Assembly (NCBI GenBank): GCA_030167865.1 | Contig: JALAGF010006300.1 | Span: 1 to 37,059 of the forward strand | Origin: Craspedostauros australis | Lineage: Eukaryota | DNA: 37,059 nt | Direction: 5' to 3' | Shown here: positions 1 through 37,059 of the stretch, in pieces | Position numbering within the stretch: position 1 is the first letter of the stretch | Layout: each line of letters opens with the position of its first letter | The notes under the pieces: generated by a model | Database searches by the model: none | What the model was told of the DNA's origin: nothing | What the model saw: the letters and a program-made list of their open reading frames with translations, nothing else | Program-made: the position numbers and the translations under genes

Positions 1-625
1 TGCAGCGGATTCCACGCTGCCGTCAACTTCCCACAATACGATGTAAGTGCAACTCGAATATGGACCGTGCTGTGACTTGGTTGTGTGCATTCACGCACAT
101 GCATATTTTTATGAATACGATGTCTTGGCTCCCTCTATGCCCACGACGCCACACGAAACCACACCGCATCCCCTCACACCACGCCTCACATCATCACATC
201 CGATCTCCCTTGCACTGTTGACTCCCCATTCCACATGTCCCATTCGACATCTTCCATTCCACCGCCACGCACAGTACTATGCGTACCAAGGCAACAAGCC
301 ACTCGGAATGCGCAAGTCCTTCGAACAGTGGAAGAGCGCAAAGGGAAGCGAACGCTGGATGTTCGAAGAGGCCATGCCGAACCTGGAAAGCGCACAGAAG
401 GCAGCCACGACCGTGCAACTTCTCACCCTGCCATCCAAGAACACCATCATGGACCTCGACAACAACTTCTCTGTGCGCGGAAAGAGTGCGTACGGCACGT
501 TCAAGAAGAACATGAACAGAATCGCGAACCATATCGAATTGCGCACCAAGGAGGACGAACGTACCGGCGAGCCGAAGTACGAGTACCTCAAGCCAGAGAA
601 TATCCCTGCATCCATCGACATCTAA
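1..625 (+). CDS. LOX: Lipoxygenase LOX-A, 3' part only (exons <1-42 and 275-625)
   Basis: 1-42 encodes CSGFHAAVNFPQYD (third Fe-His and Asn motif). GT-AG intron 43-274. Last exon YYAYQGNKPLG...YEYLKPENIPASIDI* ends in the C-terminal Ile Fe ligand. Same intron position as the complete copies. Confidence 0.93.
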
Positions 626-1757
626 CTCATGAACATTCATTCAAGCTCGGATACACATGATTAATTCATTTGAGCCACACTGACAAGTCCTTGTGTGGGA
701 GTGTTGTCCATCGTCGTTCTGTGCCGTTCCGCGTTGTTCAGCATGAGGTATGAAATGCATCAAGTCAGCCCCTTGGTATCCCTCTGTCTAGGCTCGCGCA
801 CGAAGCACAAGTCTCCGCGCGCTGAGCGGTGAAACCAATGATAGTTATTTTTGCCAGTTTGAACGAAGTGTTCTGTTCACATATCTCTTTTCACAATCTC
901 ATTTTGGGAAAATTAAGCCAACTTTTGGCATTTCTCGATGGTAAGAACTCAATTTAGAGAATCATGTGAACGCAGGACAGACATAAATGGTGATCACTGA
1001 TAGAGTTCTCCAACAGATCCAATGGAAAATGGCGCCAAAAGAAACTGCAAAACCGAATGGTATCTTGATCCATATCCTTTTTCTCTCGACAGTGCCATAC
1101 TCTCAGAGTACGGGGTAGGCACTGGATGCATCGAGGTTGCGATTGTGAAGAAGTCCTGCGAACACAACCAGCAATGCTGCAGAATTCTCAATTGATGGCG
1201 TAGCGAGCCACAGATGCAACATTCTCGTCACCCCAGAACACTTCCGCTTCTGCCTCCACATCTCTCCCCACCAATCACAATTGGGGGCCAAACCAAGACG
1301 TTACACCAATCACGGTTCGCAAGAGCAGACTAGGTTGACTCCAAGTCGCACCAATTGCGATCAAAGCCCTTCAACGTCGTCCCATTCCTGCACAAGCCGA
1401 GCGAACTTTCTAATACTTCGTTGAGCAAGTTCTTCGCAAGATTTTGGGTTTCTATCTCTTCCATAATATCGAAGAGGAGGTCGTGCATTGACTATGGCCA
1501 TAGAGTGAGGTGACACACTCCAAATCAGCGCCCAACAGTTCCCAACTGAAACGCTCACCTGTTCGACTTGCAGTTGGGCATGAACTGCAGGCGAAATGGC
1601 GCGAGTTGAATCCTTCATGGCCTCCACCTCTTATTGGTTTTGCTCTTGGAAGTCGCGGCCAGCGCAACCCGATCTGACCTCAGCCAGCAGGATTATCGAT
1701 TCCTGCATGGCTGTGCTACGCTTCTCAACCTCATCGGATTTAGTGGGGCTTGGGCGT

Positions 1758-1791: not shown

Positions 1792-2015
1792 ATGAGAAGC
1801 GACGAAAGAATTTATTGGACCAGAATTGACGAAACGTGGCCAGTCGTGTCACTTCGCTCGGAGTTATGATTCCCACCAACCTTTCGATGGTACACAGAAC
1901 AGCGCAATCTTACATTGCGACAGTCACACAAAGAGGCCGTGCGGAACGAAAACGAGAAACTTTGGTGTGCTCCGTCCTCTGTGCTTGTTTCTTTCTCGAA
2001 TCGGAAAAGATACGG

Positions 2016-2097
2016 CATCGACATCGACATCGACATCGACATCGACATCAACATCAACATCAACAACACCTCACCTCACCTCACTTCACCTCACCTC
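2016..2097 (+). repeat. Compound microsatellite (CATCGA/CATCAA)n followed by (CACCT)n
   Basis: Visible tandem 6-mers and then 5-mers upstream of LOX-B. Confidence 0.9.
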
Positions 2098-2420
2098 ATC
2101 ACTACGACTCGCAGAGGCACCGCCGGCTGGCATCAATAGCCGCAGCCAAAGCATCGCAGGAGAGGACTTCAGATCGGTTTTATCACCCCAGCTGATTACA
2201 CTCGCACAATCAAGGATGGTTTCAACAAAAGCAGCACATCATGCTGGCAACAACGCTACACCACACGCAAATCAATGACAACAGCGACACCACCAGTAGG
2301 AGTAGCGACGACAACAAGCAAAAGCCGCGGCAAGAGGCCTGTTGTCTTAGTGCAATCCCCGCGGTGCTGCGTGCAAGTTCACGCCGAACCTCAAAAGAGT
2401 TCATTCCAGCACTCGAATCA

Positions 2421-2460
2421 TCTCATAAAAATCGAAAGCGGATCAAGAACAATCCGCTCA
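2421..2460 (+). promoter_or_regulatory. Conserved LOX proximal element (CTCATAAAA...GYGGAT-N8/9-ATCCGCTCA), putative core promoter
   Basis: Also at 13985-14022, 18606-18643 and 35770-35807, always ~65-115 nt upstream of the LOX ATG. Function is inferred from positional conservation. Confidence 0.55.
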
Positions 2461-2537
2461 ACGCACAAGCGCACAAAAGCAAGCAATAACGCCAACACAA
2501 AACGCCAACAACGAAAGCAACAGCAAACACCGGCAAC

Positions 2538-5500
2538 ATGAAGCTCCACCTCATTTCTGCTGCCGCATCTGGGCTGCTCTGGGCACGCCCAGGTTCCGCC
2601 TTTCAAGCGGCGAAGCCCTTCATCCACCGTGCTGCCGTCCCGCGCACCGTCAACATCAGCCCATTGATGGTCAGCACGGAGAGTGATGTCGCCGATGCCA
2701 TTGAGGATGATGCCACCGAGACGTCCGACCTGACCGAAAAGCAGGCACTGGTTGTAGCAAAGATGCTTAGCAACCTCGAATCTATCGCTGACCTCTCTGG
2801 CGCAGAGACAACAGCCGATGTGTTGGAAGTGGCTCGATTGTTTGCGCGATTGGTGTCGAAAGACTTGAGTCGTGGTCAATCGAACACCGAGTTGGAAAAG
2901 GAATTCGAGAAACTGGGCAAGGAGATCTTTGAATATGGCCTCGCTCTCTATAGCCCGGCCATGTGGGCATCCTACACGTCGGAAGTAGGCCAAGCAATTG
3001 CAAGTGGTGCGGAAGGAAGCATGAGTCTTGACATCTCTCACGTCGCAGACTTGGCCATCGACGAAGCCTCCACCAGCGATGAAAGTTCCACCAGCGATGA
3101 AGGTTCCGCCGGCAGCTCAAGTTTGATAAAGACCATTCAAGAGCTCCTTCCAAACGCGCTTGAGCGCCGTGTCAACTTCGAGTACAACACCTATGGAATT
3201 CATGCAGAGGTGGGTCTGGGTATGCTTCGGAGTGCTTGGGAGTGCGTTTTTTTTCGGAGACCGTCAGGCTCATATTCATGAAAACAGAATCACAAAGGAT
3301 GCCTGCTTGCATCAATTCACACTCACACTCACACTCGCACTCGCACTCACACACGTACTCCATCCATCTTCCCCTTCCAACATATCCGTGCCACAACATC
3401 CTACCCCTTCCTTGTCAATGCACCGCACTGTGCTGCATCGAACGCAGTATCCTGATGTCGAGCTCGACGGGATGATGAAAATGATCGATGGTGTGCCCAG
3501 TGTTGAGTACTGGTTCTCCCTCAAGAAGTTCGTGAGGGTTTTCGCCCAAGTCTTGAAGGTCCAAGCTGGACTCAAGTTGACTGGGCTCGGCCCCGATGCT
3601 GTTAGCACCAAGGAAAACTATGAGAAGCTCTTTCAGCGACCGGGGCTTTTCTATGGCCACTACCCCAACCCCTATCTGCCAGCCCCCCAAAATGCTATCG
3701 ACAATTGGGACAAGGATAAGGAGTTCGCTCGCCAGTTCTTGAACGGCGTCAACCCAGTCATGATCGAAGTGGTCAAGGACAGCGCCAAGCTCACACCAGA
3801 GATGATGAAGTTCTTCGGAAACAAAGAGGGCGTCGACATCGATGCTCTCGCGAAGGACAACAAGCTCTTTTACGTTGACTACGTTGGATTGGCAGACCTC
3901 AAGAAGACGCCTCATCAAGCATATCCAAAGGCGTACAACAACGAAAAAACCCTTGATCCCAACAACCCTGCGGACAAAAAGATCTTGGACAAGGTTGGAA
4001 AAGAACCACGCTACTTCAAGGCACCTATGATCGTGTTCCGCAAGACTGAGGATCTCAAGAATATCGAGATCATGGCCATCCAGCTCGATCGTGAGGCTGA
4101 TTCCAAGGTCTACACTGCTGATAACTCGGGCGATATGGAATGGCAATTTGCCAAGACGACAGTCGCAACCGCAGACTCCCAGTACCATCAGGTGAGCACA
4201 CCGAGCGCGACTTGCTCACGCCAATTGCGACACAAACAACGGATACGTACGAAGAATTGCTTGTTCGCCTATCTGCAATGCGACGTTTGGGGTTGGTGAT
4301 TCTCGACAGCACCGTTCTTGGAATTCTATTCATCTCCTCGCTGTTATCTATCACCTCCTGTCGCTATGTGCCAATGATGCCATCACCAAACTCAATCCTC
4401 TCTCTTTCTCTTCTCTACTGCTTTACTTGTACATCCACGCACACATCCATGTGCGTATGGTTATGCCACTCTTCTTCCTCCTCATGTATTCAATAGTGGT
4501 TGAGCCACTTGGGGAAGACCCATTTGACCATGGAACCACACATCGTCGCCATCCACAACACGCTCCGCCGCCACGACCACAAGCTCTATCCATTCGTCAG
4601 GCCAATGTGTCGTGACACCCTCCTTCTCAACTACGCAGCGCGTCAAACGTTGGCCAAGTTTGGACCGAACAGCTTTGGTGATTACATGACATCTGTCGGA
4701 ACTGGCCAATTCATGCAACTCATCCTGAAGTATTGGGAATCTTACGACTTCTTCAAGTCTTCTGCCTTCGACGAAGAACTCAAAGGTCGCGGATTCACCG
4801 ACGATGTGGATCTTGGAAACTATCGCTACCGCACCGATGGCCAGAAGATCTGGGACGCATACGGCCGCTTCGCAACGAGCTACGTCGACGAGTGCTACAA
4901 GAGCGACACAGAAGTTGTGAACGACAAGATCTTGCAGAAGTGGGCTCACGAAACTAGTGATCCGGGGTGTGCTGCAGTCAAGAAGTTTCCCGGGAAGTTC
5001 GAGTCCAAGGCCCAGTTGGCTAAGACTTTGCAGACTCTCTTCTGGATCTGCAGTGGATTTCACGCTGCCGTCAATTTCCCGCAGTACGATGTGAGTACAT
5101 CTTGAAAGTGACATGAGTGATGGCTCATGGTTTGTCTCGCTGCGGAGACTGCTTGGCATGACGACTAGTTTTCCCGATTGCCCTCTTTGTGCGCACGCCA
5201 TATCCTCATCCCACTTCCCCCTATTTGTTCCATTCCTTCTCTTTGCGTCGACCGCCTTTTTACCATACATTCTCCCTTTGCTCTGCATATGCAGTTCTAC
5301 ACATTTCAAGCCAACAAACCACTCGGGTTCCGCAAGTCCTTCGAACAGTGGGAGGAAGCTGCCGGAAGCGAAGACTGGATGTTCGAAGAGGCCATGCCGA
5401 AGATGGACAGGGCAAAGGAGACCATATCTACCGCGACCGTCTTGACTCTTCCATCCGAGCACACCATCCTGGATCTGGACTACTCTTTCGACAAGATTGG

Positions 5501-5645
5501 AACGGATTCATACAAGGCATTCAAGCAGGAGTTGAAGACCATCTCATCTGAGATCGATGCGCAAAACGAGAAAGGAGCTCGCAGCGGCGAGCCAAAGTAC
5601 GAATACCTCAAGCCAGAGAATGTCCCTGCCTCCATCGACATCTAG
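2538..5645 (+). CDS. LOX: Lipoxygenase LOX-B, predicted plastid-targeted; exons 2538-3209, 3448-4191, 4497-5090, 5295-5645; ~786 aa
   Basis: Three phase-0 GT-AG introns join one open frame. Motifs FARQFLNGVNP, WQFAK, QYHQWLSHLGKTHLTMEP, LNYAAR, HAAVNFPQYD and C-terminal PASIDI. N-terminus MKLHLISAAASGLLWARPGSA|FQ is a signal peptide plus ASAFAP-like motif. Confidence 0.95.
3317..3353 (+). repeat. (CACACT/CGCACT)n microsatellite in LOX-B intron 1
   Basis: About six tandem hexamers. Confidence 0.85.
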
Positions 5646-5895
5646 AGCGTTCGTGTCCTTTGATGTCTGCCGTAGAAACAGTCGGAGCTTTGCTCTGCTG
5701 TGAGACCAGACGGCACGCTCAGACCCAACCCAACCAGACCAACCTTACCGAATCCAATCCACTTGCCTATCCGGGGACTGTGGTGAACTACACCTTGCGG
5801 AAGCAAATGTAGACGTAGCCACGATCCTTTGGCAATCGTTAAAAAGTCTCTAGTGAAATACATACAAATGCAACTCGAACTACTTCCGGAAGTAT
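5646..5895 (+). repeat. LOX-B 3' flank, highly similar to the LOX-C 3' flank at 17090-17345
   Basis: Shared text such as CAGTCGGAGCTTTGCTCTGCTGTGAGACCAGACGGCACGCTCAGA and TCTCTAGTGAAATAC. Confidence 0.9.
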
Positions 5896-6440
5896 CGGCA
5901 TCGATGGCGTGGCCTCATATTAGTGATTCGATTGGCGACATCTACATCGACCATCGTCGCGGAAACGGTCAACCACCTTGAGACATGTACCAGTGAGCTG
6001 CGAGGTGAATTGGGACAAGCCAAAGTGGCCCCCAACAGTGCTCGACTTGCAGTTCCGAAGTGGCGAATGAGATGGCGCGAGTTGGATCTTTCGTCACATC
6101 TTCGCTCCTTTCGTGATCTCTTGTGGCTCCCTGCATTCGACAATCAACCAACACAACCCAACCCAACCGTCCACGCCCCCTGCGAGGACTAGTGCGATTG
6201 TTCTTTTGCGAGAATGGTGCAAGGTTCACAACCACGATCAGGATCTTTTCGGTGGGCAGACCACTCGTAGATTTCACGACAGCGTGTAGGGCCATTGGCT
6301 CCGCATGAAGCTCTCTCAGCTTTGCCTTGTCGTATTGAGGAGTGCGTGTGTGTTAGTCAATTCCAATAACTGCATTTCACTTTCATCGTCTCCCAAGGTC
6401 AGCTGTCCTTACGAGTACAACGACTTGCCGAAGATGCCAC

Positions 6441-9400
6441 TCATTCGCAAAACCGTCGCTGCGTTTTGTCGAAGCGGTTGCAAATGCCGAATCCAGCCTT
6501 CACAGATGTTTCACGGCAGGAATACTCGTCGATTCGGGCATCTTCGCAACTTCGATCTTCGGGGATGTCCTGGGTGAGCAGGTTGTACGACCAAGACGGT
6601 ATTCCAGGTTCGTAGCTTGTCGACGGTGTTGGTTGCTCGATTGCGCCCGGGCCGAACCTCGACATCAACGCGCGCATTGTACGGTACAGATCATGGCCAG
6701 TGACCAATCGTCTCTGGTTGGCGTACAAGGCCTTCTTGGAAAGTCCAGCGATGTTCTCAGTCACCAGCATCTCTGTCCAAGGTCTGGAATGCTCCACCTG
6801 CGTGCTGTAATCCACGGCCAATGGCCCAAACTGGAGACCATGATCTGCGCGAACGATGATCATCGTCGGTGAGTTGGAGCTTGTGGCATCCTCGATAATG
6901 CTACGCAGCAGCGAGACGACGTGATCATCGTACCGCTCCGCCCTCAATGAGACTCTGGCCCAATCTGGAGTGTAATCGTGTGCCGCGATGGCATTCAGAA
7001 ATGCGAGCTTTGGGGAGGAGCTGTACACAGTCCACATCTGACGCAGCGCTTCGATCGAAATGTGCGCCTTCTCGATTCCCTCATTGCCGTCCAAACAGAT
7101 CTCGTTGCTGTCCTCAACTCCCCATCGCTGGAATTTGGTGATGCCGGTGAGGTTGAGCAGCTCGATCTTGCGTTCTGCAAGACGACAGAAGGTCCTGTGG
7201 GGACGGTAATCGATCTGGAAGGAAGGGAAGAGGTTGTTTTGCGTGACGTACGGCGACCCTTCAAAGCAGAACTCTTCGCCGAAGTACGTGATGTAGGCAT
7301 TATTCATACCCACGTCAAACAGCCATGGCAATCCGTTGTACTTGGTTTGCAATGGCTGAGGACACCAGACGGTCTCGTCGAGGTATGGTCGCTTGCGGTA
7401 CATCACAAGATCACGGACGACGGAATGCTCATCGTTACACACGTGGCCTTCACGGAAGGACTCCAGCAACTGCCCATTGCATTTGTCGGTCCCATTGCTT
7501 GGCATGGATATGCAGCCGCTCAGTGCGGCGACTTGGTTGGGAATGGAATTGGGTCCATAAATCGACACGTGAGAGGATAGATCCACTCCACAGATTGAGC
7601 CTTTGCATTTGTACGAGTACGGATCGTCATCGTCATCGTCATCGTCAGTATCATCATCGTTGTCTCTATCACTGCCGTTGTTGTGATGTTCGTCGCGAGT
7701 GTTGGGACCCGTCGAAGAAAGTGGAGCCTGTTGAAGACGCTGCATTCGGTATGATTCCAAAAATGATCGGGTTTTGGGGAAGAATCGATCCGCGTAGCTG
7801 GCTGATGCAGAGTCAATTTCTAGGAATAGGATGTTTACCATGTTGTCTTGATGAGCCGGCGGAAGCTGTTGCTTTCTTGCCCTCAATACGTCGAGTCCTA
7901 TCACACGAGTTTCCAGATGCAACGGCTTGCCTGGACAGTCCACCAGCATGAACGGGGTGATTCGGTCGACGATGACATTCACATCCTCGCCCCAAGGATG
8001 CTTGGAACAGCTGTACCAATCGCCAACCTTGCCGGCGCAGCGACAGCCTTCCGTAACAATGGCTCGCTGGTTGGATGGAAGTCTTGCAGTGAAATTGAGT
8101 TGGGGGCGCTGATGCTGTGGGATATCGGCATAGAATGACATCATTGATGGCGGTGTTGGCGACTCGAGCGCCATGCGCTTTCGGGTGGTTGCATTGGCCT
8201 CAATCAAGTCGCAGTACTTCTGTGGGATGGCCTGTGTTGTATGGCATTCATCACGAGCTTGAGGAAGCGGGAGGAGCAACGATTGGCCGTGCATTGCTAT
8301 TCTACCGTCCGTGTTACGATCAGGCGGTGGGACACCATCGTGTCTACTGTGACTGTTGTAATCGACTTGGTTCAGTTCCTCTTCAGTCTCAGTATCGTTC
8401 TCGTTCTTGTGTTGATTCAACAACACATCCAGCAACGTTTGGTGCACATCGAACGGGGTTGTGTGCTTGTGCCGGTTGTCGAGGATAGTTTGCCGCGCTT
8501 GCGTTTGTGCCTGTTCCTGGATGTGTTTGGGGAGTTTGATGTGGAGGATCGGTTGAATACGTTCCACCTGTCCTTCGTATGTTTGGAAGTACGGGCCGTA
8601 ATGCAGTCCATGATCGGAAACAAGCACCACCGTCAGATCATCCCACGCGCCGCGTCGGTTGAGTTGCATGCGCGTGGATTGCAAAAAAGTGCGCAACGGC
8701 GCATCCAGTGTGCCGGATAGCATCCCAGTGTCTTCATGACTGTCGATGAACGACAGGAAGGCGGCCCAAGGTGGTTGCTGGATCAGTTCGGAGCTCTGGT
8801 AGGATTGGATGAATTTGGTGGCGTACTTCATCAAGTGCAATGGCGCTGGGATAGAACCGATGCAATTGGGACGCTGGTAGTCAAAGCAGAACATGTGGTG
8901 CAAGGCGTCCCCGTGCGTTACGTTTGGCTTGATGGATTGGACCATGTTGGAGTTGAGCACGCACCCGTCCTCCGCCTTCAGCGTTGTGTATTTGTACCGA
9001 CTCTGCCGAAGCTCATCCCAAATCCACTTCGTCGCATCTCTCTGGTTGTGCGAGGAGATAGAATTGCGATCGTCCAATGACTCACCCGTGTACAGAGCTG
9101 CCTGATTCGGACCCGAATTATCTCCCACAGCGGTGTAGTTGGTGAACTCCACGAATCCGCTGTCTGGGCTGCGCAGCCACGACAATGTGCCGGGTAGGAA
9201 CCGCCGGAACATCCCGCGGCTGATGGGATCGATCATGATGAAGAGCAGGCTGTTGTTATTGCCTTTGCTGCTACTCTTCTTGGTTGTCATGGCTGACTTT
9301 GTTCGGTATTGAGAAATTGTCATCGGTTGGTTCTTTTTCGGCAGAACACCCAACCTGCGTTTATGGGAGTGTCGCTTCAGGTTGATAGCTACGTCATGCC

Positions 9401-11270: not shown

Positions 11271-11410
11271 CGCTTCACAGAACCGACAACGATGATGATG
11301 GCACCGGGAGGAAAGGCGATAAAATGGTGGTGCTGCGTTGTTGGATGCCTCGGACGCAATGCCCAGCCTGTCCTCGCGTCTGCTTTCCTGCCTTGTTGCT
11401 CCCGATGGTG

Positions 11411-11524
11411 TTGGTTGTGGTGAGTTGTGATGAGTTGTGGTGAGTTGTTGTGGGTTGTGGTGAGTTGTTGTGGGTTGTGGTGAGTTGTTGTGGGTTGTGG
11501 TGAGTTGTTGTGAGTTGAGGTGAG
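11411..11524. repeat. 10-bp minisatellite TG(A/G)GTTGT(G/T)G, ~11 units with 20-bp higher-order alternation
   Basis: tgagttgttg/tgggttgtgg units alternate; lies 140-250 nt upstream of the DUF229-like gene start. Confidence 0.9.
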
Positions 11525-12435
11525 CAGCAACGCTTTGTCTCTTTCTGCGAACATTGGCATCTGTTTCGTCACGAACGAATGGTTCGAAAGCTCCGCCAAG
11601 TTTTCAGGAATCGGAGTGTGCGAGCGAATGACTTCCCGCTTCGCGCAAACGCCGCAACCAAGCGTCGGACGCATTGGAACGACCATAATCGTTCGTTAAT
11701 ATGTCCGTAAATACAAAAAGGACGAATGATGTAGTTCGTTAGTGAATCTGCTCGTCTTGTTTGTCCGTGAAAATGTGGGGACTACTTCAGTCGTGTCATG
11801 TGGAGAGGAAGAGGACACACTAACCTCCTCGTCTTCGGTCATTCATCTCCAGAGTTGTCACTCTGGTGACAGGAAGTTGTTGAGTACTCTACTCTCAATG
11901 ATTGAGACCACGAGCATGGCATCCACCAAGTAGAAGATCAATCGAACTCGTGTCTGGGGGACGTACGTATATGAGCGGGGGGAACGCTTCGCGACAACGT
12001 CGCAAGGAGAGAGACAAGTGCGATCAAGCCGCGGAGTTGAGCAGAATAACCCAATCCTGCGAGCTACACCATCACCAAGTCTGAAAAAGGGCGGGGTCTT
12101 GCGTTCGACTTGCATAATATAATGGCTCCAAATCAGCGGGTGGGATGTATCCAGTGGTTGCTCATGTTGCAGATGTCACTCTGTATCGCGGTGTTCCAAC
12201 GCTTCTGATCGCTCACTAGGATCCATGACGCCATGCTCTCAATCCATCCCATGAACAACGTCTTCTATTCTCGGATGAGGATACTGTCGTTGACACCAAG
12301 GCTCCGACAGATGGTATCATGACTTCGAGGAGACGATCCAAGTAGGCAGCAGCACATGGACTTGGGACGCAACGGATCATGGGACGTGATGTCTGCAATG
12401 GCAGAGCACCAGATGTATGATTCCCAGTAAGTGTG

Positions 12436-23674: not shown

Positions 23675-23682
23675 ATTGGAGC

Positions 23683-25968: not shown

Positions 25969-26904
25969 ACTGTGTCACACCATTTATCACCGCGTTACAT
26001 AATCGTGTTTGATTGGACAAAACACGTCCTCCAATCGCGCCCACCGTGTTTTGTCGGGCTGGCGTGGAAATCGTGTGGTCGGAGGAGTCGCAAAAAAGTG
26101 GATTGCGCGTGCTTGCGTTTTGAGTGTTCGCAAATGCTACGGCGTGGGAGAGTAGCTCGCAGAGGATGTGGAGACGCAACCACGGAGACACGATCGTGAT
26201 GCAGGCAGCATGGTTCTTGCTATGGCATGCTTGATCTCCGTAGCACGGTTGCGACCACTATTTGTTCAACGTGTATTCTCCGTATTTCTCGTTTGATGAT
26301 GGACCTCAATACTCTCTCTCTCTCTCTCCGTCCAGAGTCATCACGAGATTCCACGCTAATCGGTGATCGATTTCGGCATCGCAGTTTTCGGTTCACTTCC
26401 GGCGGCCTCGCGATTGACTTTGGCCTTCTCCGACAAGTCATGCACCGTGAAATCTCAACGAAAAATCAGAAAGGCAGCGTGCGCCGAAGTTCACGTTCGC
26501 CGTGTTGAGCCGCCTTGCCACGCAGCGATCATCGTCGTGTATAGTACATGAAGAGCACACGCCTCCAATCGAAGACGTCGAGGCCACTCGCCAGGGGTTT
26601 TCCTCAGAGTGGTCAATGAAGTCATGTGTGTGATGCACGACTTGCAATTGCTCGGAACTTGGTGTTGTCTCCGGAGAGAGGCCCATGTAGCTCGCAGGTC
26701 GCAGAGTGTAGCTTCAGCCAGAGCATTGCAACAACGCAGTTAGCTCCGCAAGCCCTGTCCTGTCATAGATTCATAAGACCCTCATCTTTGAATCGCAAAT
26801 AGGACTCTCTACTCTACACACTTTACGATTGCATGCTTGGGATCCAGTGCGATATTCTAAAATACATGCCACGAGCACTACATGTCACATGACCAAGTTA
26901 CGGA

Positions 26905-29900
26905 TCATTGTTGTACGTGCGCGCGCGCTGATCTCAACTTCTCCACCTTCCTCGTTGCACCCCATTCCTCGTACAGCCGAATGGCTTCTTCCATGACCTG
27001 ATCGGCCGCATCGTCCATCCCCATCCTTGTCAAGCACTCCGAAAGGCGCTCATTCGCCAGCGCTTGATCGTTCGTGAAGCCGCAACTTGTGGCGAGATCG
27101 ATCGCATCCTTGAACTTCACGACGGCAGAGTCAAACTTGGATCGCACCATCTTGTGTTCTGCTTGCACCAACGCGTAGCTGTGTTGGCAGTTTGGGTTGC
27201 CCATGTCGGCCCACTTCTGGAGCTGCTTGCGGCACCGGTCTCCTTGCTTGCGGTATGTGGCTGCTTTCGATTTGCTGGAGGTTGTGTAGCTCGTAGCGTA
27301 GCAGCAGATGCTGCCGTACGCTGCGACAACTGGAAGTTGGCTTACTCCTGGAATTTTCTTCAACAGCTCGTCGAAGGATTCCAGAGACGTGACTGCGCCG
27401 CTCTCAAAGTCGGCCAAGAACGTAACTGCGATCAGCCGGTATGCCATCGTAAAAAGGGCAGCGGTCTCATCTATCTGCTCAGGTGGCTGCGCGAAGAAGG
27501 CATCTTCATCGAACACGTGTCCTTTCAGCTTGGTTTCATGGTCGGAAAGGCCCCGGAGATTTTGCACGGCCTGCCAACTGATGTCGAGATAGTATTTTTG
27601 CTCGAGTTGCTGAGCGTCGTTCATGGTATGGGCGAAACTCAGCATGTCCCGATCCAGTTGAGCTAGCGGTTTGCCAATGAACATCTCGATTTGTAGATGA
27701 TTGGAGCGACTTCGAAATGCTGAAAGGACATCACCGGATGCCATGCCCAGCTCGTAGGCTCTCCACATTTGCTGCAAGATACCCTCCATCGGCCTTATCC
27801 AATGCATAGTGCCTCCATGCAGCGTGTAGATTACCTTACTTTTGCAGCTTTGATTGGATGCGTGATCCGTCATCTGTATGGAGATATCGCCAATCGTTTC
27901 CGCGGTTTTGAGATCTCCCATCACATGGCCGAAGATATAGGCGAGATGGGCAAAGGCCGAAGATGAGTAAGGCAGTATGCCATGCTTCATTGTCTTACCC
28001 ACGGACTCAAGAATGGCCAACGGGAACAGTTCCGGAGCAACGAAGAAAGACATACTAACCAGCTGGTCCAGCACTTGCATCGCAGCTACTTGTGTTGGAT
28101 CCGTGCACAATGGCATGCTTCGAAAGGACTCCACAGTCCATCTCGGTGCCACTCGTTTCATCTTGAGGAGACCACGTATCACCTTGAAGTTCCTGCCAAA
28201 CTTGCTTCTTGGGAACCTGCATCCAAGTTGGCCTAACACAGACATGATTGTTGGGATCGTCTTCGTTGTCCGAATTTCGTGAGGTCCAATGAAGACACCA
28301 TCGATAACGATGCGGTACGCCCGGACCTTGTCAAGGATGGAGCAATCCAATGACAACACGCTCGAGCAGTATCGTTCCACCTCATCGGTGTTTGCATTGA
28401 TGTACGCGCATTCGGCGGCCGACGAAAAGATGTCGATGCTCTGATGAAGATGGGTCTTCCAATGATCAGATGGCAACAGCTCCATTGCCGTCCGGAAATA
28501 CTCCGCCGCAGCTTGGAATGCAGCGCATTCGACAGCAAGCTGACCTGCCTTGGAGTTGAGCATGGCGATCCTCATGCGACGATCGGTGTGCTGAGCAGTG
28601 GCGGGTACGAGATCGAGCCTGGCATTGATGAGGCCAGCGATCATGTGGACCTTGTCCTCTCGTATCTCACCCTTCGAGTATGAGGTGAGCAAGACATCAC
28701 CAACTCTGTGCCGCAGCTCGGAGAGCTTGTCTTGAGGAACGAGCGACAGTGCAGCTTCCTGGACTTGATCGTGGATGAAGGTGTATCGATACCCTTGCTT
28801 TCCATTGGCGTTGTTCGTGGGCTGCTGCTGAGTGCCGATGCCCGTATCCTTCGTTCCAGACTTTCGGCGTTGAGAGCTGCGATGCAGATGTTGCTCGATG
28901 AGACCTTCTCTCTCACAGACATCCAGACTTTGTTGAATACCTTCGTACGAGATGAGGTGCGCCTGTTGCCGTTGCAGCTCTTGTGACCGCTCCGATTGAC
29001 GGAGGGATGAAGCACCATGCGACCGTTGTGATCCATCCGATCTCTGAGATGCATCTGATGACTGTGAAGATGGCATCAGCGCAGCATTCTCATCTGACGT
29101 CAACAGATCCTTGAAGAACGCTCTGTGGCCGGAGTGGATGGACAGTGTCCGGATCGCAAGGATCAGCCTGCGGTTCGAGAATGTGGATCCAAGGCATGCC
29201 GCGATCGGCAGCACGTGACGAGCAGCGTCCAGACGATCCAGCTTCTGCTTCATCAGATCAACCATATTGGCCGTGGCGGATGACCCGGCCATGATCTTCT
29301 GCTCGTCCCAGATCCATTTCATCCCGCCGTCCTCATCCACGGACAGCAGCTTCTCGTACACCAGCGACTCGAGGAACTGCTTCATGAAGAAGATGTTGCC
29401 TCCAGTCTTGCGGTGCACAATGTCAGCAAGACCGTTCACGTCGTCGTCNNNNNNNNNNNNNNNNNNNNNNNNNNNNNNNNNNNNNNNNNNNNNNNNNNCG
29501 AGGAACTGCTTCATGAAGAAGATGTTGCCTCCAGTCTTGCGGTGCACAATGTCAGCAAGACCGTTCACGTCGTCGTCATTGTCGGGCAGGAGGATCTCGA
29601 CGAGAAGATGGCGGACGCTCTGCAACGGTAGATCTTGGATCGGGATGTCAAGGATACGGATGGATCTCTCTCGTTTGCATTCTTGAAGAGCCGTGATCAT
29701 GTCTTGAAGGCCTTGGCTTTGATCGAGCTCATTGGATCTGAAGCATCCGATGATCATCAGGGATGAGATGTCGCCATCCATCGCCCATGTCTGCATGATG
29801 TCGATCGATGCCTTGTCAGCCCATTGGATGTCGTCCATCATGATCACCAGCGGGCTGTGATTGCAGACGATCCGAAGGAATCGCTTGAGCGTGTGCTTGA

Positions 29901-30936
29901 TTCGATCGGACTTCGCTTTGTATCCTTCCGTGACTGCGACTGATGCTGATTGAGCGGATAGATCAAGTCCATGAGCAGCCGATCCTGAGGTGGATGTTCT
30001 CGTGAACGAAGATTGTTTGATCAGAGATTGCTCACGAATGTCATGCGATGATGTGCTTGCATCTTCATCGGCATGTGCGCTGACATCATCATCGCTAATT
30101 TCTTGAAGGTCATGGCCCTTGTTCTGTCGATCTGCAATTGCATTGTTGGTGCTCTCGCCGACCATCATCTCAAGTAGACCTGGAATGATCTTGTACAGGG
30201 TCTTGAGCTCCTTCGATGACAGACGCCGAATCAATGCTTGGTGCAATGTCGAGAATCTTCGCGGATCGTCCACTGCCGCAGCAGCCATACGAGTATCCTC
30301 CTGAGGCAATGCCATGATCTGCTCCACCAGCTGGCCCATCGCGTTCTTGATGCCCGCGTACGGTTCCTCCATCTGCTGAAGATCGAACTTGCCAGAAATG
30401 AAGAAGGCGAAGTTGTCGAGGCAGTGCTGCTTGTAGTGCATGGCGAGTGCGGACTTGCCGCTTCCTGATGGTCCCGAGATGAAGCATACTGTCTTCAGAC
30501 TTGTGCGATGGCGCTGCTCGCGACGTTGCTGTTTGTGATGCATTTCGTCTTCACTGTTGTGGTTGGAGGTGAAGCTATCACTGCTGGTGGTGGTGCTGGT
30601 GGTGGTGATGCTGGTGCTATCCAGATTTCGCGTGCCTTGGGTGGCTCGCTTTCTGTTGAGCATCTGATTGATGGCATTGGATAGCACCCGTTTCTCCTTG
30701 TCCCGCCCAACGATTCCAGCGCGGTCGAAGTTGAAGGCATAACCATGTTGATGGGCAAGGGATAGTCCGCTGCTGGTGAGCGAGTCTGTGTCTGACATGT
30801 TGGTCGATGGATCGTTGAGGCTCTTCGTGCTGCTCGTCCTGTTCTTGTGCAGCATGTTGGACTGGGGTGTGCCGGCCAGCGGCACGGGAGACGATGTCGT
30901 TGTTGTCATTGTCGTCATCGTTGGCGTTGATGTCAT
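26905..30936 (-). CDS. STAND-class P-loop ATPase (AAA_16-like) with C-terminal TPR-like helical repeats; ~1300 aa after gap correction
   Basis: GIVGRDKE, Walker A ISGPSGSGKS, SGKFD...EPY, Walker B IMMDDIQWAD, HRKTGGNIFF, YTFIHDQVQEAA, C-terminal ALANERL...AIRLYEEWGATRKV. These match the ATPase-TPR core of bacterial STK/ATPase/histidine-kinase sensors. Confidence 0.85.
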   Translation of the reverse strand: MTSTPTMTTMTTTTSSPVPLAGTPQSNMLHKNRTSSTKSLNDPSTNMSDTDSLTSSGLSLAHQHGYAFNFDRAGIVGRDKEKRVLSNAINQMLNRKRATQGTRNLDSTSITTTSTTTSSDSFTSNHNSEDEMHHKQQRREQRHRTSLKTVCFISGPSGSGKSALAMHYKQHCLDNFAFFISGKFDLQQMEEPYAGIKNAMGQLVEQIMALPQEDTRMAAAAVDDPRRFSTLHQALIRRLSSKELKTLYKIIPGLLEMMVGESTNNAIADRQNKGHDLQEISDDDVSAHADEDASTSSHDIREQSLIKQSSFTRTSTSGSAAHGLDLSAQSASVAVTEGYKAKSDRIKHTLKRFLRIVCNHSPLVIMMDDIQWADKASIDIMQTWAMDGDISSLMIIGCFRSNELDQSQGLQDMITALQECKRERSIRILDIPIQDLPLQSVRHLLVEILLPDNDDDVNGLADIVHRKTGGNIFFMKQFLXXXXXXXXXXXXXXXXXDDDVNGLADIVHRKTGGNIFFMKQFLESLVYEKLLSVDEDGGMKWIWDEQKIMAGSSATANMVDLMKQKLDRLDAARHVLPIAACLGSTFSNRRLILAIRTLSIHSGHRAFFKDLLTSDENAALMPSSQSSDASQRSDGSQRSHGASSLRQSERSQELQRQQAHLISYEGIQQSLDVCEREGLIEQHLHRSSQRRKSGTKDTGIGTQQQPTNNANGKQGYRYTFIHDQVQEAALSLVPQDKLSELRHRVGDVLLTSYSKGEIREDKVHMIAGLINARLDLVPATAQHTDRRMRIAMLNSKAGQLAVECAAFQAAAEYFRTAMELLPSDHWKTHLHQSIDIFSSAAECAYINANTDEVERYCSSVLSLDCSILDKVRAYRIVIDGVFIGPHEIRTTKTIPTIMSVLGQLGCRFPRSKFGRNFKVIRGLLKMKRVAPRWTVESFRSMPLCTDPTQVAAMQVLDQLVSMSFFVAPELFPLAILESVGKTMKHGILPYSSSAFAHLAYIFGHVMGDLKTAETIGDISIQMTDHASNQSCKSKVIYTLHGGTMHWIRPMEGILQQMWRAYELGMASGDVLSAFRSRSNHLQIEMFIGKPLAQLDRDMLSFAHTMNDAQQLEQKYYLDISWQAVQNLRGLSDHETKLKGHVFDEDAFFAQPPEQIDETAALFTMAYRLIAVTFLADFESGAVTSLESFDELLKKIPGVSQLPVVAAYGSICCYATSYTTSSKSKAATYRKQGDRCRKQLQKWADMGNPNCQHSYALVQAEHKMVRSKFDSAVVKFKDAIDLATSCGFTNDQALANERLSECLTRMGMDDAADQVMEEAIRLYEEWGATRKVEKLRSARAHVQQ
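29449..29498. other. Assembly gap (50 N) flanked by an identical 79-bp overlap (29370-29448 = 29499-29577)
   Basis: Direct comparison of the sequence on both sides of the N run. Confidence 0.95.
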
Positions 30937-31651
30937 TGCGATCGTCGATTTGGCTGTTGTGGATGTCGAAATTGTGGAACGGTCTTGTGGATGCCGACTT
31001 TGAGGTGCCAGCTCCGGTTTCAGTTTGTGATCTCCAGCTGCACTGGGCGTTGCGTTTGTTCATTCTGGCAAGTGCAAATTCGTTCCACAATGCGATAGCG
31101 CCTCCACTGGAAAGTTGTTATCCCCTTGGCGAGGGCAATTTCCTCCTTCCGCTCTCCCTGTTGGGCAGTTTCAGGCATCTGTGTATCGATGCGGCAGCGC
31201 CCGAAACATCCCCAGCTGGAGAGGACGAGTTCTGCAGTTCTTGGCAGATGATACCAAGATGATGCAAGGGCGCGTCGCCACAAACTTCGTGTCTGTTGTC
31301 GGGTGCCTTGACTCGCACGAAATACTGGCACGGCCGCCCGGATCGTTCACAAAAGTACTTGCGTCTCGCTGGGAACGCGAAACGGAAGTTGACCTTTTGT
31401 GCGGTGTATCGGACCTCGAAATCACGAAGTTGGTTTTCGCGTTGGCACCCGCGTTGATATTTGTGGATTTGGTCACAACATGCTTTTGGGAATGACGTGG
31501 AACGAGTGTTCAGCTTTCGACACGTTCTACTTCACCACGCAAAGGGGACATTGATGACGTGGAAAAACAATCATTGGCAAATGTTGTATTTACGGACTTT
31601 TCCTACTACTGTATTGAGTTGTTTGTTTCGAGTTGGATTTCGAATGCTATT

Positions 31652-34247
31652 CCCTAGTTGCAGTTCAACTAAGAACGGACTACTTTCTCATTTGGGGTGT
31701 CCTGTATCGTCGCTTGAAATAGCCTTTTGGCGCGAAATTGAGCAAGCCCGACAATGGCCAGACACTTCCTTTGCCCCCCCCTCTTTTAAAGTTACGAACC
31801 ATTCCTGGTTCCCATGCTACGGTCCGTCTATCCAATCAACGCATGTGGGAACTATATGCTCCTTCGATCCTGTCAGATGGGCTTCACTTGGATTCCCTTT
31901 TACTGCTACGACATCCGCTGACTATGTTGGCTCTGTCGTCAACAATCCAAGTTGCTTCAACCACAGCAATGGAATCCTAACGCAAGTCCATACCGCCGAC
32001 ACCTGCTGCATTGTTCCTACAACTTCAACAGCTGCTGAAGCCACAAGACCTTTTGCATGATGTCATCAGTAATCAAGAGGAGAAGAACTGATGGAAAGTA
32101 AGGCCTCTTCTCAGCACTGAACCATGAGGGTCAGTGCAGAGCCGTGCCAACCTGTTAAGCATCGTTTCTTCATCCTGCCTACAACAATACTAACTCATAA
32201 AATCCCACAAGTTCAGATTAGTACAACATTACTACTCTATTCATCGTTACAAGTCCTAATAGCCAACAGCGTTCAAGCCCAGCGAACTGCGTCAATCGGT
32301 CTTCATCTGAAGCTGGCAGTCCACAAGGCCTTCTCCGGTTCGTCTGCAAAGGCACACGGATTTCAACTCCCTCAAAGACCCAGACCCCCAAAATTGGTTA
32401 CATTTGGTTACAGTTGACTACGGATGTTGGACCCATTTTTCCCAAACTCAGACTTCGTTTTATAGACACTCGATCCAACATCTCTTCATATCTACATTAA
32501 CTTAAGAGACAGGGCTATCCAGGCAAGTGATAGCATTCTAACACTGTCACTTGTCGAGATGTACATGTGAGTATATGTCAAGATGTACGTGTATATGTGA
32601 ATCGGTCACCCATTTTTTCTTATCCATGTTCGGACGGTACAACTACATTCGTGTAGATAGTATGCTGTGATTTGTCAAAATCAGTGGAAATGGAACACAC
32701 GAAAATGAGCAGAATTTCTGGAGGAAATTTGCAATCAACGATTTCTGAGAGAATTAGAAGATCGTCCGTCCATCCATCAATGGAAACGTATGGTATCGAG
32801 CAAAGCTCGATGTACCTCCCAACTAGACCCCAGATGACAATATCATCTGACAGACCATCGCATCATGGATGGAACGTGACATCTGGAGAGCAGAAGGACG
32901 ACAGCTGACATCAACAGGATGTCATCATGTCACCACGTCAACATCTGTCTCCATGTCAGAAGCAGAAGGTGAAGATTTGATGACCGAAGGGCATTGAGAT
33001 CATGGATACAGGAGGTGAAGTTCAAATGGTAAGTACTCACAGAGTAGGAACCAGCAATGAACAAACAGAGTGTTGAATGTGGAGCACGCATCGAACACAG
33101 AATATTGTGTAACACGCACATGCAACATTGGAGAGAGAGAGAGAGAATACAAAGAGTGGCGAGAGAGCATCTCGCGTATCGACTCATAGTCGGAGATTGA
33201 ATCTACGAAACAGATAAACGCGCCAAGAGCATCAGGCAAGAGAACGGACACTGAGAGGATCGGAGTACCAACGTAATGAAATAGCAAACAGAACGACTAT
33301 CAACCAACACCGTCTTCCACGATCATAGGCTTCCAATCACGGAACTTGCCAACACACCTGGCCCTCTTTTTCACCCTCAATACAACCTCATATGCCACAT
33401 CATGGATCCCGATTCCAGTTGGATTTTCGTGTGCTGGTAGGACATGATCCGGAAGGGAAGGCCTTGCTACCCGTCAGATTCAATGAAGCTGATGATGCAG
33501 TTTGCGAGGGTGAACCGTCTGGGTGATAGTTGTAAATGACAATGAGTAGAGTAGTGTTGCTGTGCTGGTCTTGAGTTGTGCTATTGGTTCTTTTGAATAG
33601 TCTGCATTGTGAGTTGATCAGTTTGAGATGAAGGATGAAGAAACGCTGTTCAGTTTGATGGTGCGGCTCTAATACTGACCCTCAGAGGTTCAGTGCTAAG
33701 GACGGACGAGGCTCCTCTCTCTCTCACTCTCATTCTCCACTATCTGTGGTAGTTGTTCTATGCTCAAGTACAAAGCCTTGACATCTTGATTGAGGTTGTA
33801 ATTGAGAACACAGGTTGTCAGGTGATAGGAATTGCAGCTGAATTCCCTGCTCATGTTGAAGCAGGGCGGATCTCCTTATTGTTATCGTGTGGAGTTGGTA
33901 GTTGACATAGCTGGCAATGGAATCGAGATTGGCTGTGGCACAAGGATTCAGAGGAGCATATAGTCCCCGGTGTACATTGAGTCCAGCGAATCAAGTGGTT
34001 TTGAGTCAGCAATGATTGGCGAATGAGAGTGGGAGAATGAGGGAAAGGAGTGATTGTTCCGTATTTGTTGGCGGATGGTTTCGCGCCAAAATTGACGCGC
34101 CAAAAACAATTTTACGGTGCGACATGGGATACACTAAGTGGAAAGTAGTCTGTTCTTGAGATGAACTTCAACTAGTGTTTGTTCCTAAGTGAACTTCATG
34201 ACGTAGTCTGTCCCTTCCTGAATTCCGACTATTTAAACAAACTAGGG
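31652..34247. mobile_element. Putative degenerate non-autonomous DNA transposon or foldback element with ~0.7-0.8-kb inverted arms (31652-~32368 and ~33417-34247)
   Basis: Ordered reverse-complement matches: 31671-87/34141-57, 31725-37/34079-91, 31851-63/33952-64, 32113-35/33674-97, 32163-76/33632-45, 32324-33/33457-66. Termini CCCTAGTT...AACTAGGG. No transposase ORF or TSD seen. Confidence 0.55.
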
Positions 34248-37059
34248 CAAAAGGAGAAGCCAGAGAATCTCCAAAATTTCTCCGAACCGCTTCTCTTTTT
34301 GTTGTCGCGAAGATCGAACATCAACAACACCAACAATACCAACACCACCACGAGAAGATTACAACGGAGGACATCGAGGAACCGAGAGGCACACTGCTGG
34401 TGTTTGCAGCAACAAAAACTACGACAACAGCTGCACAATTAAACAGAAGCATGGCGGCAGGGACACTGCTCGTAACAGTACTCCCATGAACAACCACGTT
34501 GACCAGAATGTCTTATTCGTGCATCTATCGATGGTTGATTGGTTTGTCAACCGGTTGGCTGGCTCCTCAAGCAGCATGCACACTGCCAAGCTTCCAGAAG
34601 AATGACCTTCCTCTGGCTGGTTGTCTGCACAATACATCGGATTGGGAGCTGAGATAATAACCATCATACGGAACATAACAGCAGCGACCGAATCTTGAGA
34701 GGTGTTCGTCAGGCTCATCCAGAGTGATGGGGTTGTCATCTCTCTCTCCCTCTCCATCTCCATCTTTTCCTCTGGAGAATCTTTGGAGCGGATGCGTGGG
34801 CGACTCATGTGACAGCAATGGCCTATCATCTTGGCTGTGCTGCTTCGAACAGATGGCAGCGGCTGGTTTCTTCGCGAAGGCCGTGGCAATAAATCCCATG
34901 CACGGGCAATCTTGACACCACGTTTCATGCAGATGGCTTCGAGTTCCGGTTGAGCCGTTGAATGGGATCAACTGGATCCGCAAGTGACGTTCGCCAAGTG
35001 AAAAGATCTCATTTGCTTGGTTCGCAGGCCAGAAGCGACATCCAGGATGGCAGCATTTCGATCATTGGAGGCACCTGGTTCTCCTTTGGACGCGGTTTTC
35101 CATTCGAAATTACTCTGCGTACCACACTAGCACAAAACCCATCAGTCCAACCAGCTGTCTTCGTCCACCCACACAGTTCTGTTGTGTGCCAGCGTGTGCC
35201 ATAAATTCGAATTGAAAATGTGAGGAGATTTATGCCACGGGGAATGAGCGACTTCATTGGATCTTCCCTCATAACGGAACACTTTTGCTCTCACATCCTT
35301 CAGATTTATGATTCCTAGTCGACTCCACTGAGTTATCAACGCGCATTGGGCCGAAATGAGAAATCTCCAGTCGCGCTGAACGCTGTGTGCATTTTCTCTT
35401 TCCCACATCGATAAAGATACGACATCAACAACACCTCACCGGAGGCAGTAGCGAGATCGTGATGGCACCCAAAGATCGGGTGTCAACGACTGAGAGAGTT
35501 GCACAATCGCAAGAGAGAAGAAGATCGACAGCAGCAGCACCACCACTACCAATACCGGCAAGGATTACACTGGAGCAGCACGTACGAGGTATGGCATCTG
35601 GAGCAACATCGATAGCAGCAACATCGACAGCAGCAACGACAACAGCTGAAGCAACGACAACAGCAATGAAGACCGCGGCGATGATCATGCTTTCTTCGTG
35701 CAACTCTCGCGATGTTGCTCGCGAGATCGCACTGCACATCAAAGAGATCGATTTGGACAATCAAATCAGCTCATAAAACCGAAAGTGGATCAAGAACAAT
35801 CCGCTCATCGCAGAAGCACACGCACGCACACAGCATACAAACAAACACAAAACAAGCACAACCGTTCTACCAACACCATGAAGTTCCACCTCGTCTCTGC
35901 CGTCGCAACCGGCCTGCTCTGGGCATGCCCGAGCTCCGCCTTTCAACCCGCGAAACCATTCATCGCCCGTGCCACGGCTCCGCGCCAGCTCAACATCGGT
36001 CCTTTGATGGATAGCGCCGAAAAGGAGCTCGAGGAGCTGGCGAAGGGTAACATCGGGGCTGTCGCCACTGATGACAGTGAAGAGACCTCTGGGCTCACAC
36101 CTGATCAGGCGAAGGTCATCTCCGGATTGGTCCAAGACCTCGACACCTTCATGGGCGAGGGAACGGGAGACGCAGCGGCCGACAAGCAAAAGCAAGCGTT
36201 GGTGGGGAAGCTGGTCGCCGAGCTGGCCGCCAAAGACTACACCGACAACAACGAGGATCCTGACTTGGAGAAGAGGATGAAGTCCTTGTTCTTGAAGATC
36301 ATGGAGTACCGATCGATCAGCGCCCTCAATACCGAGAAAGCTGGAACTAAATCCTCGTCAACGAAGGCAACAGTATTGTCCAACCTCATTGAGCTGGTAA
36401 TCAAAAATCAGATCAAAAACAAACTTCCCTTGGGGTACGCTACATACCCAGTGCATGCAGAGGTACGAACGCTCGGAAGACCGCGCACGCATGCTCAGCA
36501 CTGTCGCCAACCATGGCGAGCAATTGCTTTCACGAACTCACATACTCTCTCTCTCTCTCTCTCTTCACTTCAACACACCTGTACCACATTCTATCATTTA
36601 ATGCAATGCCATCTCAATCCTTCTGCCCCATGCGTGTCATTGCACTGCGCTACACCACACCACATCGAACACAGTATCCTGACGTTGAGCTCTCGGGATT
36701 GATGAAGATGGTCAATGGCATGCCGGGAACTGATTACTGGTTCTCTTTCAAGAAGTTCGTGAGAGTGCTTGCGCGAGCTTTGCGAGGACAGGCCGGCCTT
36801 GCTACGAACCCGCTTACAGCTAGCGATACCTCCACGGTGGACAACTACCAGCGAATCTTCAAGAACAAGGACACAGGCATGGATAATGAGTTTCTCCCAC
36901 CCCCAAGGCAAGCCATCGGCTCCTGGACGAAGGATGAAGAGTTCGCCCGCCAGTTCTTGAACGGCGTCAACCCCATCATGATCGAAGTCGTGAAGGACAG
37001 CACCAAGCTCACGCCCCAGCTGACCGACTTCTTCGCTTCGGAGCCGGATGTCGACGTCG
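34245..37059 (+). repeat. Segmental duplication copy B (upstream region plus 5' part of LOX-E)
   Basis: Collinear with 12436-15262. Confidence 0.93.
35878..37059 (+). CDS. LOX: Lipoxygenase LOX-E, 5' part only (exon 1 35878-36462, exon 2 36675->37059); recent paralogue of LOX-C
   Basis: Exon 1 is near-identical to LOX-C for ~130 codons. GT-AG intron 36463-36674. Exon 2 YPDVELSG...FARQFLNGVNPIMIEVV stays open to the window end. Confidence 0.92.

Follow-up and report, generated by a model that had tools for sequence, protein, structure and literature searches.

The 37,059-bp stretch of DNA analysed here (referred to throughout as the window, ~52% G+C) harbors five lipoxygenase (LOX) copies on its plus strand, LOX_0, LOX_A, LOX_B, LOX_C and LOX_D, which were located by self-BLAST, by tblastn with the diatom LOX proteins P0001 and P0002 and by Pfam, as shown in Table 1. 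Three of them (A, B and C) are intact and complete inside the window, and LOX_0 and LOX_D are clipped by the window ends. A preliminary description, made from the letters of the window, had reported five co-oriented LOX genes cut at both window ends, and self-BLAST, tblastn and the PF00305 profile all recover them, far in excess of what chance would produce. Its word "array" is an overstatement, as the LOX spans total ~10.9 of 37.1 kb (~30% of the window), with genes for a DUF229 protein, a UBC-domain protein and a STAND NTPase, and an open reading frame (ORF) of unknown family, lying between the copies. The neighbouring pairs 0/A and B/C are ~1.9 kb and ~1.6 kb apart, respectively, A and B are interrupted by a single gene, the minus-strand DUF229 ORF, and C and D have an assembly gap and no fewer than three unrelated genes between them. 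The copies are same-strand paralogues that are adjacent or have few unrelated genes between them, as in a tandemly arrayed family, and the form of the cluster is interspersed, or dispersed, with no pure array. Stop-to-stop ORFs show the same layout, with LOX-like pieces on the plus strand and unrelated long ORFs, mostly on the minus strand, between them. The profile check proposed in the preliminary description for the spliced proteins was done on the 27 ORF translations, where Pfam placed PF00305 on seven, DUF229, UQ_con and AAA_16 on one each, and no family on the remaining 17. The Pfam scans of the ORF translations detected no CYP74, catalase-like allene oxide synthase or lipase in the window, and the Rfam and tRNA scans of the window found no RNA genes.

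Table 1. Coordinates of the LOX copies, the duplicated segments, the conserved 5' flanks and the intervening genes in the window.
Feature	Position	Strand	Description
LOX_0	1-625	+	3' end only: end of exon 3 1-42, intron 3 43-274, exon 4 275-625 including stop
LOX_A	2538-5645	+	Complete, 786 aa; exons 2538-3209, 3448-4191, 4497-5090, 5295-5645
LOX_B	14082-17089	+	Complete, 754 aa; exons 14082-14666, 14878-15612, 15937-16530, 16739-17089
LOX_C	18707-21712	+	Complete, 752 aa; exons 18707-19285, 19527-20261, 20569-21162, 21362-21712
LOX_D	35878-37059	+	5' part only: exon 1 35878-36462, intron 1 36463-36674, exon 2 from 36675
Segmental duplication, copy 1	12436-15262	+	1.6 kb upstream and 5' part of LOX_B
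Segmental duplication, copy 2	34245-37059	+	Upstream region and 5' part of LOX_D
Conserved 5' flank block	A 2304-2537, B 13908-14081, C 18529-18706, D 35650-35877	+	Found by self-BLAST and alignment
DUF229 gene	6441-11603	-	1720-aa ORF with two DUF229 stretches (alkaline-phosphatase superfamily, sulfatase/phosphodiesterase-like); PF02995, E 1e-63
ORF without significant family	22070-23674	+	534 aa; sub-threshold Pfam matches only
UBC-domain gene	23683-25974	-	UQ_con, PF00179, E 9e-12
STAND/AAA_16 NTPase gene	26905-31059	-	Pfam AAA_16; contains assembly gap

The splice models were built from tblastn with the full-length P0001 and P0002 proteins together with inspection of the junctions. A four-exon structure is common to the copies, with three GT-AG introns of phase 0 and 199–324 bp that lie at homologous codons wherever visible; intron 1 falls after ...HAE or ...YEE and before YP(D/N)V, intron 2 between YH(E/Q) and W, and intron 3 between QYD and the following aromatic residue. 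The spliced A, B and C frames contain the terminal stop only and no internal stops, LOX_D stays open for 323 amino acids (aa) up to the window end, and LOX_0 is open for its last 130 aa. The identical intron positions and the absence of frameshifts reported in the preliminary description are thereby confirmed for the visible copies.

Judged from their sequence, the five genes encode lipoxygenases, the identity given in the preliminary description, as seen in the PF00305 and PDB matches, the model of a relative and the conserved ligands. For PF00305 (cut-off 23.6 bits), A, B and C score 99–114 bits in their exon 3 ORFs and 30–36 bits in their exon 2 ORFs, and exon 2 of LOX_D scores a marginal 23.9 bits; the LOX_0 tail, with no Pfam match of its own, aligns to P0001 at E 2e-36 in tblastn. 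All 23 database relatives found with LOX_A exon 3 carry PF00305. P0001 matches 54 distinct PDB LOX sequences, with human ALOX15B in first place (E 2e-42) and an 11R-LOX, Cyanothece CspLOX2 and coral 8R-LOX ranking next. An AlphaFold model built for P0001 from a 41-row alignment reaches a predicted TM score (pTM) of 0.82, with a per-residue confidence (pLDDT) mostly >85 from residue ~220; the helical LOX catalytic fold is present in this model of a relative of the window proteins, and all Foldseek matches listed for it are LOXs, down to E 1e-28.

The metal-binding residues are likewise conserved among the copies. The three complete copies contain H-LGKT-H and, like LOX_0, also HAAVN and the C-terminal Ile. 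They therefore have the full set of five ligands (His-x4-His, His-x3-Asn and the terminal Ile), and the truncated LOX_0 retains each of the three that fall within its sequence; LOX_D ends upstream of the ligand positions. In 41 aligned LOXs, H479, H484 and H664 (P0001 numbering) never vary and the conservation of N668 and I789 is 90% or more; these residues align with H-x4-H and HAAV(S) of ALOX15B, which we take to act as metal ligands in that enzyme. Because of this invariance and the ALOX15B alignment, the ligand pair is assigned to the second and third His of H-x4-H-x4-H and is therefore wholly encoded in exon 3, with intron 2 just after the first, non-ligand His. The iron ligands described beforehand are thus intact wherever they can be seen, with the pair itself corrected to these two residues.

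The named relatives of the LOX genes are proteins of the diatoms Stauroneis constricta, Epithemia clementina, Skeletonema marinoi, Aulacoseira subarctica, Ditylum brightwellii and Chaetoceros neogracilis and, further out, of one pelagophyte. The nearest are the Stauroneis constricta LOX (P0001) and P0002, which are 74–75% identical over exon 3 and 50–56% elsewhere. A profile-free search of 1.84 billion representatives gave 1539 matches at E <=1e-3 and 47 at E <=1e-30, and no protein closer than about 74–75% identity was found among these representatives, indicating that the source species and its close kin are not among them. Since the named relatives of both the LOX genes and the neighbouring DUF229 gene are diatoms, the organism is assigned to the diatoms, in agreement with the preliminary description.

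Differential levels of divergence were observed among the copies. Amino acid identities are 59% for A/B, 69% for A/C, 64% for B/C and 88% for B/D, exon 4 of LOX_0 shares 60–69% with A, B and C over 130 aa, and the LOX regions are 70–81% identical at the nucleotide level in self-BLAST, the B/D segment excepted. Nei-Gojobori synonymous divergence (dS) lies between 0.59 and 1.63 for all pairs except B/D (0.14), with values of ~0.6–1.1 among 0, A, B and C, and the ratio of nonsynonymous to synonymous divergence (dN/dS) is 0.20–0.49 in the nine pairs computed, the tenth pair (D/0) sharing no codons. All copies are under purifying selection. A maximum-likelihood tree (LG+G4, with bootstraps) was inferred from 26 rows, namely the five window models and 21 of the 23 database relatives, leaving out the long-branched P0022 as well as P0023, which spans just 22% of the query and was in none of the trees. 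All five copies fall into a single clade (ultrafast bootstrap 99; SH-like approximate likelihood ratio test, SH-aLRT, 96) in which B and D group at 100/100, and the sister of this clade is Stauroneis constricta with P0002, a transcript from MMETSP (100/100); a quick mixture-model tree returned the same five-copy clade with an SH-aLRT of 96. The growth of the family thus postdates the separation from the Stauroneis-like lineage sampled here and is mostly ancient, apart from a single younger segmental duplication. The lineage-specific family proposed in the preliminary description is accordingly supported, and its phrase "actively duplicating" is at most weakly supported, by the one younger B/D event (dS 0.14), the other duplications being old (dS ~0.6–1.6).

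The two B/D segments are 88.7% identical over 2.86 kb in self-BLAST, and their similarity has a sharp edge at 12436/34245, just outside of which identity falls to 37%. By segment, identity is 92% in the exons, 84.5% in intron 1 and 91.5% in the upstream 1.6 kb. The distal part of the upstream sequence (12436–12985 / 34245–34800) is 93–97% identical, above both the exons and intron 1, and a six-frame comparison of the duplicated upstream sequences found no frame better conserved than the DNA itself; this distal part may have a regulatory role, encode a non-coding RNA or be a tract of gene conversion.

Evidence of transcription was obtained from a single public run (X1), the only one with any of a 9.4-kb probe (8% of the sampled words). 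When the run was compared with window positions 2001–22000, 11 of its 30,610 contigs matched, leaving most of the 20 kb uncovered and the run uninformative on the expression of A and B. One identical contig joins 20807–21162 to 21362 and skips 199 bases bounded by GT..AG, which are exactly LOX_C intron 3, and a second identical contig covers 21362–21854. In another contig, the end of exon 2 (20261) is linked by 18 letters to an exon 3 sequence unlike that of A, B or C, and a 435-nt contig with ~90% similarity to exon 4 of A and C has its junction where exons 3 and 4 meet. The spliced contigs therefore come from transcripts of LOX_C and at least one further paralogue, and confirm two of the three intron positions; they indicate that the catalytic exons of the further transcribed paralogue lie outside the window, as would be the case for LOX_0, LOX_D or a sixth copy. 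The paralogue contigs align at window positions 4515–4561, 5364–5644, 20261 and 21362–21421, and one exon 3 start among them reads WVTHLG. An X1 contig identical to 5926–6243 could belong to a long 3' untranslated region (UTR) of LOX_A or to the 3' end of the convergent DUF229 gene. The 3' flanks of A (5646–6162) and B (17090–17771) are 79–83% similar, up to ~680 bp past the stop, and this similarity is not found in C.

Divergence among the copies is greatest in the part of the protein that exon 1 encodes. Neither the exon 1 ORFs nor four full-length relatives gave a Pfam match to a PLAT/C2-like barrel, the relatives showing the LOX domain only, and the N-terminal region has no Pfam, PDB or protein-atlas relative. 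Residues 1–220 of the P0001 model consist of low-confidence helices only, and its PDB alignments begin at residue 281 or later. LOX_A carries an acidic, Ser-rich insert of 39 aa (window 2949–3065) that is absent from B, C and D. The four visible N-termini (A, B, C and D) begin with M-K-(L/F)-H-L, continue into a hydrophobic core (Kyte-Doolittle 10-mer maximum 1.9–2.2 from residue 5) and reach (G/S)SA|F at residues 21|22, reading GSA|F in A and C and SSA|F in B and D; a signal peptide with SA|F had been noticed in the preliminary description. From F22 onwards a stretch without Asp or Glu extends over 26 residues in A and 23 in B, C and D, with three to four Lys/Arg and a net positive charge.

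Diatom plastid presequences span an ASAFAP motif in which Phe at +1 is crucial for import (PMC4329603), and, by reading, the presequence of the window proteins fits this rule as published. A script applied to 18 full-length relatives placed F at +1 in eight and L in six and found no site in four, and because of these eight the SA|F presequence is not special to the locus. Import into the plastid is a reasonable inference from the presequence and somewhat favoured over the alternatives; of the plastid targeting claimed in the preliminary description, the fit of the motif to the ASAFAP rule stands, and the evidence is at the level of a motif that is shared by relatives.

Conservation was also observed upstream of the genes. 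About 175–235 bp before each ATG can be aligned among A, B, C and D, and within this block the 11-mer CAATCCGCTCA occurs at 2450, 14012, 18634 and 35797, each time 70–88 bp upstream of a LOX ATG. These four occurrences are the only ones in the window, where 0.03 would be expected, and 0 of 100 shuffles reached four. Since synonymous sites among A, B and C, and between D and A or C, are near saturation, the block looks constrained; it might be a core promoter or a 5' UTR element, and its presence before all four visible genes suggests common regulation.

The catalytic motifs are nearly identical among the copies, and the Ala before the conserved Arg (NYAAR/NYFAR), which we take to be the S-stereocontrol position of the Coffa-Brash rule, is kept in A, B and C. 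Copy-specific changes were seen next to these motifs, such as HQW in A in place of HEW in the others; NYFAR and LFL in B, the others reading NYAAR; and GLH and NYPQ in C, with GFH in A, B and 0. The docking contacts of PaLOX include Glu388-Trp389 (PMC10968607, Table 2), with which we infer the HQW/HEW positions to correspond, and the changes beside the motifs are compatible with divergent specificity without being a demonstration of it. The "oxylipin arsenal" of the preliminary description is a hypothesis with little support from the sequences, whose catalytic motifs hardly differ.

The LOX genes share different features with several known systems. The Stauroneis constricta LOX (MMETSP1352; P0001) and P0002 have the length, N-terminal region, xSA|F presequence and ligands of the window LOXs, and they are known as single transcripts only, whereas the window holds at least five genomic paralogues in a clade of their own. 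PaLOX and the Skeletonema marinoi LOX, of groups 1-2 in PMC10968607, have the same H-x4-H, H-x3-N and C-terminal Ile; over exon 3, identity with the S. marinoi LOX (P0011) is 58%, and group membership is deduced from the ligand pattern and P0011. Among solved structures, human ALOX15B (4nre, 7laf) is the best match by both sequence and fold, with aligned His ligands, and differs by its N-terminal PLAT domain, by Ser instead of Asn at the fifth ligand position and by an identity of 23%. Cyanothece CspLOX2 (5med) and the Pseudomonas aeruginosa LOX (4g32/4g33) lack the PLAT/C2 barrel like the diatom LOXs, and CspLOX2 is the structure best covered by the P0001 model, almost fully (TM score 0.83 normalised to the target; sequence E 1e-39), whereas both are bacterial, lack a targeting presequence and show ~24% identity.

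The number of copies stands out against the counts reported for model diatoms. Thalassiosira pseudonana, Phaeodactylum tricornutum and Fragilariopsis cylindrus have at most one LOX according to PMC5712309, and Pseudo-nitzschia arenysensis, the single species with functional data in these papers, has a unique LOX transcript (PMC11111692) compared with at least five paralogues in the window, which agrees with the statement in the preliminary description that model diatoms have few LOX genes. The survey of Giordano et al. 2024 (PMC10968607) sorts 45 diatom LOXs into six groups and discusses neither gene clusters nor targeting, and a literature search for a cluster or tandem expansion of diatom LOX genes found none among the matches listed. 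A close parallel is the stramenopile Saccharina japonica, whose LOX family also grew by tandem and segmental duplication, with all dN/dS <0.5 and dS from 0.05 to 1.7, and with some members predicted as chloroplastic by ASAFind (PMC5712309). It differs in being a brown alga with LOXs of another, prokaryote-like clade, and has 11 genes genome-wide and three tandem clusters (PMC5712309).

The genes between the LOX copies belong to unrelated families. The named relatives of the DUF229 protein are diatom proteins with 35–50% identity, from Nitzschia inconspicua, Ditylum and one MMETSP record with a name beginning "Pseud", and its ORF has a short Thr/Pro/His-rich tandem repeat near the start (11406–11524). 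The 534-aa ORF has a weak, sub-threshold Methyltransf_24 match around a GxGxG-like stretch and shares a G+C-rich part of the window (58–61%) with the UBC-domain gene. A gap of 50 Ns (29449–29498) lies inside the STAND NTPase ORF and has an exact 79-bp direct duplicate on both flanks (29370–29577), which looks like two overlapping contigs joined by Ns instead of being merged; the ORF reads through the gap with a repeated stretch of 26 aa. For 16 minor ORFs, Pfam at E up to 1 gave sub-threshold matches only. The 32–34 kb stretch is gene-poor and low in G+C (~45%), and contains two adjacent inverted-repeat pairs (32138–32247 / 33539–33670), 72–74% complementary and ~1.3–1.5 kb apart, which may mark a degraded transposable element.

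Taken as a whole, the window very probably represents a nuclear segment of a raphid pennate diatom with a dispersed cluster of at least five paralogous four-exon iron LOX genes that has grown within its lineage. Older local duplications (dS ~0.6–1.6) would have come first; later, a single segmental duplication of 2.8 kb or more would have derived LOX_D from LOX_B with 1.6 kb of its upstream sequence, or the reverse. The copies would have been retained by purifying selection, with copy C and one further paralogue apparently spliced into RNA. The predicted protein would begin with a bipartite plastid-type presequence and continue through a helical, poorly conserved N-terminal region of ~170–210 aa, which takes the place of PLAT, into a canonical LOX catalytic domain. 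Such enzymes may be imported into the complex plastid and would add O2 to eicosapentaenoic acid and C16 polyunsaturated fatty acids released from galactolipids, and the hydroperoxides formed would enter oxylipin synthesis. Several points weigh against this interpretation. LOX_D lies beyond the gap with its flanking duplicate, so the window joins two contigs; gene conversion could inflate the monophyly of the copies, although with dS ~1 among them it is not recent; one X1 contig (21183–21391) is unspliced over LOX_C intron 3, and the run is small and its RNA nature an automated guess. Furthermore, a crude regular-expression site-finder preferred for A, B and D an xxG|L site that precedes SA|F by nine residues, and scored the SA|F site only for C; the fold and PDB evidence comes from the relative P0001, 50–56% identical outside exon 3, and not from the spliced window proteins; and the rarity of diatom LOX genes derives from a 2017 survey of three diatom genomes, on which the per-species counts in PMC10968607 may bear.

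The contig join and the close similarity of B and D over their 2.86 kb also leave room for an assembly artefact, in which some copies, above all B and D, would be uncollapsed haplotypes or homeologues placed in series and the true number would be lower. Such an origin is very improbable, as the nucleotide identities of 70–81%, amino acid identities of 59–69% and dS of ~0.6–1.1 among 0, A, B and C are far past allelic divergence, the B/D similarity stops sharply between unrelated flanks, a pattern that a segmental duplication would produce and collinear haplotigs would not, and the 79-bp overlap supports the contig join. A larger share of doubt concerns the destination of the proteins, which might enter the secretory pathway without reaching the stroma and reside in the endoplasmic reticulum, the periplastidial compartment or the vacuole or be secreted, SA|F being coincidental or serving another compartment. 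The motif-level nature of the targeting evidence leaves space for this, as does the S. marinoi relative, in which a signal-peptide-like start is followed straight away by acidic residues, without an aromatic +1, and no report on the localisation of a diatom LOX was found in the literature searched. We nevertheless regard a non-stromal location as unlikely, since SA|F and the acid-free positive stretch are kept in four of four visible N-termini despite 45–50% amino acid divergence of exon 1 between A and B/D, and the eight relatives with F at +1 have the residue crucial for plastid import (PMC4329603).

The reason for which the copies were retained is more evenly balanced. Under a dosage or redundancy explanation, all copies would make the same products and would be kept for higher or differently timed expression, and this falls somewhat short of an even chance; it is favoured by the ligand motifs and the Ala aligned to the presumed stereo-control Ala, identical in A, B and C, and by the upstream block common to the four visible 5' ends, whereas the changes adjoining the catalytic motifs (HQW in A, NYFAR in B and GLH in C) and the strongly diverged N-terminal regions speak, short of proof, for different products. 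A more far-reaching and rather doubtful proposal, less probable still than a non-stromal location, is that the cluster forms a co-regulated plastid battery of sub-functionalised LOXs, in which the shared block with the 11-mer would mediate a wound or stress response and the motif changes and PLAT-less N-termini would confer different positional specificities or lipid and membrane preferences.

For the LOX family, the novelty of the dispersed diatom cluster lies in an expansion that is unusual for a diatom; iron LOXs and family growth by local or segmental duplication are textbook matters, for which the kelp Saccharina offers a close parallel. Research on diatom oxylipins concerns their effects on grazers, bloom dynamics and signalling, and the genes responsible are, to our knowledge, small in number and little characterised. 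A locus with five or more LOX paralogues that are intact, under constraint and in part transcribed would offer a natural system for asking whether species-specific oxylipin profiles stem from LOX gene diversification, and the conserved promoter-proximal block would be useful for studying their regulation. If the sub-functionalised battery were true, it would trace a diatom's species-specific oxylipin profile to its genome for the first time.

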